64,000 nucleotides of DNA from a virus (lineage: Duplodnaviria; Caudoviricetes), in the IMG/VR virus record IMGVR_UViG_3300025316_001101. One strand, given 5' to 3'. Below, in pieces: positions 9,763 to 9,997 of the stretch (position 1 is the first letter of the stretch; every line of letters begins with the position of its first letter). The notes under the pieces were generated by a model. It made no database searches. It worked only from the letters and a program-made list of their open reading frames with translations, and was not told the origin of the DNA. The translations under genes and the position numbers were made by a program.

Positions 9763-9997
9763 AAAGTCCTCGGCCGACAAGAAGCGTAGAGACGCCATTC
9801 CCTTTCGGGAAGTTATAGCCTTCACGCACGGACCCTTTCAGGTTACCGCCGTTCGAAACGCAATTAGATCTCCCCTTCGAGAGATCACCGGATTCAGTCG
9901 AAACTTACCGGCTTGTGCTGTCGCTTGCAGGTCGCCCTGTTTTGCTACCTTAGGACCATCATTGATGTAGTCCCCACTACATTCGGCCGAGGACTTT
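9763..9997 (-). ncRNA. structured ncRNA E1 carrying 23S rRNA H69-H71-like segments
   Basis: Perfect 15-bp terminal stem (9763-9777/9983-9997); GAAA/GAAG-capped hairpins with G-U pairs favouring the minus strand; GGUCCUAAGGUAGC, CGACCUGCA, GGUAAGUUUCGAC, GAAUGGCGU segments. Confidence 0.8.

Follow-up and report, generated by a model that had tools for sequence, protein, structure and literature searches.

E1, a 235-nt element at window 9763-9997 on the minus strand (the window being the whole 64,000-nt stretch of DNA analyzed), was a folded RNA with a likeness to H69-H71 of 23S rRNA far beyond chance; it belonged to a covarying structured RNA family linked to Ro60 genes, and its two ends resembled the scaffold of the Y RNA YrlB. 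Because this scaffold was shared with Ro60-adjacent genes and lined up with YrlB, and because of the Y RNA 5′ motif and the Ro60 linkage, E1 was probably a phage Y RNA (Ro60/Rsr partner) composed of a YrlB-type scaffold plus an rRNA-mimicking effector module, for which we infer Ro60 binding and function. This key identity, a Ro60-linked Y RNA, was missing from an earlier sequence-only reading, and it came from the Ro60 gene linkage and the YrlB-type scaffold.

E1 surroundings, fold, and likeness to 23S rRNA

The window was contained in a 259-kb IMG/VR virus record (about 50% complete by CheckV) that occurred in freshwater and lake metagenomes of several studies. Its 30-33 tRNA genes, two of which had a CUA anticodon, all occupied the minus strand; E1 was located on that strand too, with small ORFs on either side. 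The CUA tRNAs (amber suppressors; window 16289-16362 and 43227-43301, minus strand) hinted at TAG recoding, several array tRNA genes displayed long inserts or extra arms (43660-43778, 16932-17026, and 176-270), and HTH proteins recurred between tRNAs, in the phage window and in other arrays. Also found near E1 were genes for a MscL-like channel (window 8786-9268, minus strand), an HNH homing endonuclease with an associated repeat (7556-8377, plus strand), and a SAM methyltransferase (6789-7478, minus strand), and the neighboring protein 10016-10450 had no relatives among viral contigs.

E1 had a minimum free energy (MFE) of -96 kcal/mol (z = -4.9 versus shuffles). The perfect 15-bp closing stem and the GNRA-type hairpins proposed from the letters alone were confirmed (GNRA/UUCG present), and the proposal of a folded non-coding RNA held on the MFE z score, the 15-bp stem, and the family covariation (see below). 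The parts of E1, from its 5′ side onward, were as follows:

10000-10029, minus strand: promoter-like element TTGCAA, 16-18 nt, TATATT/TATTAT (consensus match only; putative promoter)
9983-9997, minus strand: P1 5′ strand, 15 nt, of the terminal stem in which the two ends of the RNA pair (fold and family covariation)
9980-9987, minus strand: GCCGAAUG, fitting GNCGAAN0-1G, the 5′ motif of bacterial Y RNAs and a proposed contact for Ro60 (from sequence)
9970-9977, minus strand: P2 5′ strand GUGGGGAC, pairing with 9786-9793 (helix 2; corresponds to Rfam YrlB P2)
9957-9969, minus strand: UACAUC-AAU-GAUG, conserved UACAU plus small apical hairpin, as in YrlB
9928-9939, minus strand: H71-position hairpin CAGG-GCGA-CCUG (covarying helix 4)
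9860-9926, minus strand: conserved AGCGACAGC, then helix P5 enclosing two hairpins (helix 5)
9916-9918 with 9860-9862, minus strand: P5 strands (helix 5)
9887-9912, minus strand: first P5 hairpin, E1-specific, containing GGUAAGUUUCGAC
9867-9886, minus strand: second P5 hairpin GAUCUCUC-GAAG-GGGAGAUC
9821-9857, minus strand: P6 (UUC-GA-ACG with CGU-GAA), closing hairpin P6a (9828-9849) (helices 6 and 7)
9812-9820, minus strand: GGCUAUAAC (family: GGCCGUAAC, like 23S 1906-1914)
9798-9811, minus strand: hairpin P7 UUCCC-GAAA-GGGAA, a variable element in the family (fold)
9786-9793, minus strand: P2 3′ strand GUCUCUAC
9763-9784, minus strand: CUUCUUG bulge (YrlB: AUUUG), then P1 3′ strand running into the U-tract

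In addition, GGCUAU (9820-9815) could pair with AUGGUC (9959-9954) in an H69-like stem P3 with swapped strand order; P3 was compatible with the family alignment (82% paired), with covariation not above shuffles. A pairing GGGAYU/GGUCCU from the first alifold run was dropped in favor of the YrlB-like P2. The promoter-like site (TTGCAA, 16 nt, TATATT) ended about 5-7 nt before P1 and would place the transcript start close to the first P1 base, and a U-tract (to 9755) directly continued the P1 3′ strand and looked like a transcript end.

A strain of about 96-97% identity differed at 2 of the 235 nt of E1, compared with 10 of 263 nt and 18 of 503 nt in the flanks; SNP rates of 0.85% in E1 and 3.6-3.8% in flanking genes showed E1 to be under purifying selection in natural strains. 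The two differences were (i) C>T at 9819, which replaced a G.U pair in the putative P3 by A-U, and (ii) GGUAAGUU changed to GGUAGGUU. In another strain, 14 nt were inserted immediately past 9755, beyond the RNA's end and before the downstream ORF 9520-9747.

The seven rRNA-like strings listed by the sequence-only reading were all present where it had placed them, and one additional string (the last below) was found:

9957-9944, minus strand: GGUCCUAAGGUAGC, equal to 23S 1921-1934 (H69 3′ strand to H70)
9934-9926, minus strand: CGACCUGCA, equal to 23S 1958-1966
9909-9897, minus strand: GGUAAGUU(U)CGAC, 12 of 13 nt matching 23S 1949-1961
From 9853, minus strand: AACGGCGG, equal to 23S 1900-1907
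9818-9812, minus strand: CUAUAAC, equal to 23S 1914-1920
9800-9792, minus strand: GAAUGGCGU, equal to 23S 1968-1976
9781-9774, minus strand: CUUGUCGG, equal to 23S 1942-1949
9963-9956, minus strand: AAUGAUGG, equal to 23S 1977-1984

The word comparison was made with the E. coli 23S gene rrlH: 69 nt of E1, in seven segments, were covered by exact words of at least 7 nt from 23S 1895-1990, while dinucleotide shuffles (n = 5000) gave a mean of 9.1 nt and a maximum of 54 nt. None of the 5000 shuffles reached 69 nt, so the rRNA matches stood up to shuffled controls and a chance mosaic was rejected. The best 96-nt window across the whole 23S was 1889-1985, and the antisense strand had at most 21 nt covered by 23S words. 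E1 was the top real window of the 259-kb phage genome in the rRNA word scan; the sole higher-scoring window (35450-35690, plus strand) was a tandem repeat with a 15-nt period (GGTAAACCGGCTGCT-like) in what is probably coding sequence, and was set aside as an artefact.

The description of E1 as a scrambled mosaic did not survive the comparison with relatives, since its core was one colinear block conserved across a large family, composed of the H69 loop and 3′ strand, the H70 5′ strand, and then an H71-like hairpin. As for the scattered pieces, the strings were there, but CUUGUCGG turned out to combine two parts of the YrlB-type scaffold, the CUUG bulge and the P1 3′ strand, GGUAAGUUUCGAC and GAAUGGCGU belonged to parts variable among members (one being altered in the strain variant), and the 1896-1914-like block, read as H69 flanks, displayed no family-wide enrichment. 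A 28-nt block and one hairpin were the only rRNA-like parts, and the bacterial LSU rRNA model RF02541 gave no colinear match over E1 at E<=10.

The E1 family and its rRNA-like block

Relatives were sought by a 14-mer scan of viral contigs, which recovered RNAs of the same layout, almost all in same-strand tRNA arrays; a narrow DNA pattern gave no matches. A pattern excluding true rRNA gave at least 120 matches in metagenome collections and at least 120 in genome collections, and removal of rRNAs and intron-bearing rRNAs left at least 176 loci, at least 156 of them non-redundant. These relatives were distributed over phage contigs, metagenomes, and bacterial genomes of at least five phyla, with carriers including Chryseobacterium, Dokdonia, Aquimarina, Acaryochloris marina, Okeania, and many Myxococcota, Planctomycetota, and Verrucomicrobiota.

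Eighteen sequences of E1's subgroup were aligned, and the RNAalifold consensus comprised 40 pairs in 7 helices. Consensus pairs were formed in 93% of cells, compared with 75.7% in column shuffles and 34-45% with slid partners; both-sided changes occurred in 26 pairs, and none of 500 shuffles reached any of these measures. P1 displayed double changes in 8 of 11 pairs (96% paired), and the inner pair of P2 varied between C-G and U-A. E1 retained nearly all consensus pairs (P1, P2, the hairpin after GGUAGC, P5, and P6), several of them by compensatory changes; for example, P6 was kept by double changes, with UUC/GAA plus ACG/CGU in E1 versus GGC/GCC plus ACG/UGU in the family. The family was thereby shown to be a discrete, conserved, covarying structured RNA.

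Among the matches listed, the family consensus equaled 23S at every position of 1909-1936 (H69 loop to H70), and outside the 14-nt search word it did so at all of 1909-1920 plus 1935-1936; per-position identity there was 50-92%, falling to background level upstream of 1909 (1908 and below). This conserved block read CGUAACUAUAAC-GGUCCUAAGGUAGC-GA, covering the loop and 3′ strand of H69 and the 5′ strand of H70, and in some members the identity to 23S extended over 29 nt. At the H71 position, 129 of the 156 relatives among the matches listed formed a stem capped by a GNRA loop, 45 of these having H71's UCGG/CCGA stem. The H69 loop UAACUAUAAC was kept in part of the relatives, and the H70 loop AAUUCCUU was deleted in the family. 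Conserved AGCGA sequences before and after the hairpin could pair with each other (G-C/C-G flanked by A.G), a pairing that would be H70-like. E1 was atypical: many relatives held CGUAACUAUAAC (H69 loop sequence) where E1 had its UACAU apical hairpin, with CAUC-AAU-GAUG in place of the loop sequence kept by most relatives, and E1 carried GCAA instead of GCGA.

Rfam 15 (gathering and E-value thresholds), applied to the window and to the loci of 33 relatives, gave no family over any member, and E1 itself had no family match at E<=10. A blastn search of INPHARED phages found no homologue, the only hit being a 29-nt rRNA identity in contaminating rRNA records. No LSU-like fragments were found in the five other E1-bearing phage contigs, and no SSU-like fragments in the 259-kb phage genome. 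Separately, some viral contigs (L012, L041, L087, L005/L092, and the L006 group) contained stretches of 20-40 nt identical or nearly identical to 23S 1921-1960, e.g., GGUCCUAAGGUAGCGAAUUCCUUGUCGGGUAAGUUCC, sitting in neither rRNA nor Y RNA contexts.

The E1 class was widespread and apparently undescribed: Rfam contained YrlA and YrlB and nothing that detected this class, and searches of the openly accessible full-text literature recovered no rRNA-like Y RNA. An unnamed structured RNA of about 430 nt has been reported in Mycobacterium tRNA arrays (PMC5966550).

Ro60 linkage, a second rRNA mimic, and rival explanations

In Flavobacteria, the RNA was located outside tRNA arrays, and its conserved same-strand neighbor was a 505-aa protein with TROVE and vWA_Ro60 domains; a profile of these flavobacterial proteins identified Ro60 homologues in 55 motif-bearing loci. 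In 45 of the 103 genomic loci listed, the 8 kb of sequence covered contained Ro60, on the strand of the RNA in 45/45 and at a median distance of 451 nt, and 37 of these 103 loci had neither Ro60 nor tRNAs in those 8 kb. Of five other phage contigs carrying E1 relatives, three contained Ro60, among them both (2/2) near-complete genomes. The phage of E1 encoded a full-length 578-aa Ro60 (G000:127064-128797, coordinates of the phage genome), which could be aligned over almost its whole length with the solved structures of Ro60 and Xenopus Ro, and over the C-terminal half (residues 289-543) with Deinococcus Rsr. This gene was on the same strand as E1, about 88 kb away and not adjoining.

Just after the phage Ro60 gene, an array of about eight YrlB-like genes of 60-253 nt, one apparently nested, was found (G000:129088-130060, outside the window). 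These eight genes shared the scaffold P1, GAAUGC, P2 ending GG(U/G)(C/A)C, UACAU, (C/U)UUGUC, and P1′, the scaffold of E1 being the same GAAUGC...CUACAU...CUUGUC, and they also carried the 5′ motif GNCGAAN0-1G. Also directly behind Ro60 were a YrlA-like element and a tRNA carrying an insert of 61 nt (L337:2530-2658), and this Y RNA repertoire was unusually large for one phage. By the definition of Chen et al. (PMC4201824), a bacterial Y RNA has a terminal stem, carries GNCGAAN0-1G as its 5′ motif, and is encoded near rsr on its strand. E1 had the long terminal stem of paired ends (15-bp P1) and the 5′-strand motif at the stem top (GCCGAAUG, 9987-9980). CGAAU was invariant in the 18-sequence alignment, and literal GAAU[GA] was found in 33 of the 156 members listed, other lineages having variants such as GGCCGAAAG. 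Counting against the Y RNA reading were the roughly 88 kb separating E1 from Ro60, the 37 loci with neither Ro60 nor tRNAs, the limited spread of literal GAAU[GA], the sub-threshold scores of the Rfam YrlA and YrlB models, the loss of the H69 loop sequence in E1, and a P3 stem with covariation no higher than in shuffles. Elsewhere in the window (39839-40215, minus strand), GAAUAC...GGUCUACA resembled the 5′ half of the Y scaffold, with no convincing closing stem found there.

A second RNA with an E1/YrlB-type scaffold was located at window 19910-20214 (minus strand), directly after a tRNA gene. Its flanks were UUUCGGCUCGA-AUGC-GAGUGGGAC-UACAU on the 5′ side and CCUUG-UCGGGCCGAAA on the 3′ side, and the LSU model matched window 19963-20106 (minus strand) at 1085-1152 with 31-36 bits. 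The matched 23S region was the GTPase-associated center (GAC; H43-H44, L11-binding domain), with an 82-nt insertion in the H44 loop. Since this second scaffold RNA carried a different rRNA mimic, the presence of both in one phage supports modular effector domains. GAC-like RNAs without a Y scaffold were also observed in at least 10 distinct phage contigs (L338-L353), displaying GAUGUUGGCnUAGAAGnAGCCAUCAUUUAAAGAGUG, a large insert, and GGCGUAAUAGCACAC; some adjoined tRNAs and one had a clear promoter, and they look like an RNA family of their own mimicking the L11-binding domain.

From these data the following mode of action is proposed for E1 as a Y RNA. Its ends would form the Ro60-binding scaffold (P1, GCCGAAUG, P2, UACAU, and the CUUG bulge), with Ro60 presumably contacting the region at the top of P1. 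The inserted module of about 150 nt, built around the copy of the 23S H69 loop/3′ strand-H70 and the H71-position hairpin, would be the effector part, by analogy with the tRNA-mimicking module of YrlA. The module would dock a Ro60 particle, perhaps joined by PNPase (as in RYPER) or another exonuclease, onto a reader of the H69-H71 face; candidate partners are (i) the 30S subunit at bridges B2a/B3 and (ii) factors or enzymes binding H69-H71. Alternatively, by mimicking the 23S substrate of Ro60, the module may occupy or gate this protein; in both cases, ribosome surveillance or turnover would be steered in the infected cell. A ribosomal address is plausible because Rsr takes part in 23S maturation and rRNA decay (PMC4201824).

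A bolder extension, which we regard as doubtful, is that interchangeable rRNA-mimic modules (H69-H71; GAC) address Ro60 to defined ribosomal partners and, more radically, that this same 23S region was the ancestor or the model of the elements by which Y RNAs bind Ro60. The family had GGUCCUA where animal Y RNAs have GGUCCGA, and look-alikes of CGAAUG and CUUGUCG occurred at 23S 1942-1974. If the Ro60-binding elements did mirror H69-H71, the exposed H69-H71 of misassembled 50S subunits would be a natural Ro60 substrate and Y RNAs would be its competitive mimics.

An unlikely reading is that E1 is a Ro60-independent rRNA decoy within the phage tRNA arsenal, soaking up a host enzyme, toxin, or factor acting on 23S H69-H71 (a defense RNase, RluD/RlmH, RRF, or HflX), by analogy with phage tRNAs, which are thought to counter tRNA-cleaving defenses. 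The dense same-strand tRNA arrays housing most relatives in phages, Myxococcota, Planctomycetota, and cyanobacteria fit such a role, as do the distance of E1 from the Ro60 gene and the identity of the family consensus to 23S 1909-1936; however, the same-strand Ro60 adjacency of all 45 such loci among those listed, the stand-alone Ro60-RNA pairs of Flavobacteria lacking tRNAs, and the scaffold common to E1 and the Ro60-adjacent YrlB-like array argued against it. Moreover, the UUCCU of the H70 loop, where MazF-mt6/mt3 cut, was exactly the part deleted in the E1 family. A decoy role would be compatible with Ro60 binding.

Two readings without a trans-acting RNA fared worse. It is highly improbable that E1 is a cis-acting 5′ leader of ORF 9520-9747, whose rRNA mimic binds a protein and controls translation as r-protein leaders do: the Shine-Dalgarno sequence and ATG of this ORF did begin 16 nt past the closing stem, and r-protein leaders usually work by rRNA mimicry, but the ORF matched no Pfam family and was not conserved beside E1 relatives (their flanks being tRNAs, Ro60, or unrelated genes), the RNA was self-closing and ended in a U-tract, and the 14-nt insertion of the strain variant fell between RNA and ORF. 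Strong covariation in stems unrelated to rRNA, strand agreement with neighboring tRNAs and Ro60, purifying selection in natural strains, and the lack of any intron or rRNA model match left the very lowest likelihood to a DNA-level relic, i.e., a decayed rearranged 23S piece or a homing-endonuclease/intron target without RNA function, even though the block spans a hot spot of group I intron insertion and the I-CeuI site, and short runs identical to 23S occur in other settings in several more viral contigs. A group I intron was dropped in the absence of a model match and a core, and a homing-site relic was dropped on covariation, strand consistency, and purifying selection.

With E1 read as a Y RNA, the findings bear on the targets of bacterial Ro60-Y RNA particles, to which the tRNA-like module of YrlA is the only known clue. 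Here, a Ro60-linked class was present in phages, Flavobacteria, cyanobacteria, Myxococcota, Planctomycetota, and Verrucomicrobiota, its module consensus being letter for letter the 23S H69 loop-H70, and such a 23S-identical module points Ro60 at the subunit interface of the ribosome. The class supplies candidate Y RNAs for phyla absent from the main text of a Y RNA survey, and it includes a huge freshwater phage with more than 10 Y RNA genes and two different rRNA mimics. In both phages and bacteria, the tRNA-array regions may accordingly be broader translation-RNA toolkits than thought.

Comparison with known systems

The comparison was applied to known RNAs of related structure, location, or logic. 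The rRNA-mimicking r-protein leaders (L10 and L1) resembled E1 in being short RNAs that copy a conserved rRNA site, presumably for the same partner; r-protein leaders lie upstream of and are co-conserved with an r-protein gene, while E1 was not upstream of any, had a self-closing terminal stem, and belonged to a class linked to Ro60 and tRNA arrays instead of r-protein operons. The phage RNAs GOLLD and ROOL were, like E1, structured and often near tRNA genes in phages and prophages, but they were much larger and had no Ro60 linkage, no rRNA-like block, and no Rfam sequence or model similarity to E1.

The 23S H69-H71 region itself (domain IV, bridges B2a/B3) and the E1 family shared the identical 1909-1936 block and a hairpin at the H71 position, and the family GGCCGUAAC could pair with ACGGUC as in the H69 stem. 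Unlike 23S, the family had the H71 loop replaced by GNRA and the strand order of the H69-like stem swapped, and its P5, P6, and P7 had no rRNA counterpart.

YrlB (RF02565), the second Y RNA of Ro60/Rsr in Salmonella and Mycobacterium, is encoded near rsr on the same strand, and its Rfam consensus and structure lined up with the E1 scaffold: both displayed a terminal stem P1 followed directly by GAAUGC, P2 ending in GGGAU/GGGAC, a UACAUC apical hairpin, and, ahead of the P1 3′ strand, an AUUUG/CUUG bulge. With its roughly 78 nt, YrlB forms a simple hairpin, whereas in E1 the apical hairpin was followed on its 3′ side by a multi-helix insertion of about 150 nt with rRNA-like sequence. RF02565 gave no match to E1 at E<=10 (gathering threshold 97 bits), and its best match in the phage genome, 29 bits, fell on the plain YrlB-like genes; E1 was not classed as a YrlB member, since its likeness to YrlB was limited to scaffold motifs and helices.

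The YrlA and YrlB models gave sub-threshold matches only in the phage genome, and that of YrlA (RF02553) had no match over E1, where a tRNA-like module was not found. YrlA/Yrn1 (Chen et al. 2014, PMC4201824) imitates tRNA, while E1 imitated 23S (H69 loop, H70, and H71 position) without a T-arm or D-arm; nevertheless, YrlA/Yrn1 and E1 were alike in their occurrence in phages and beside tRNA genes, in the 5′ motif GNCGAAN0-1G, and in the joining of a Ro60-binding stem (putative in E1) to a module imitating an abundant RNA of translation.
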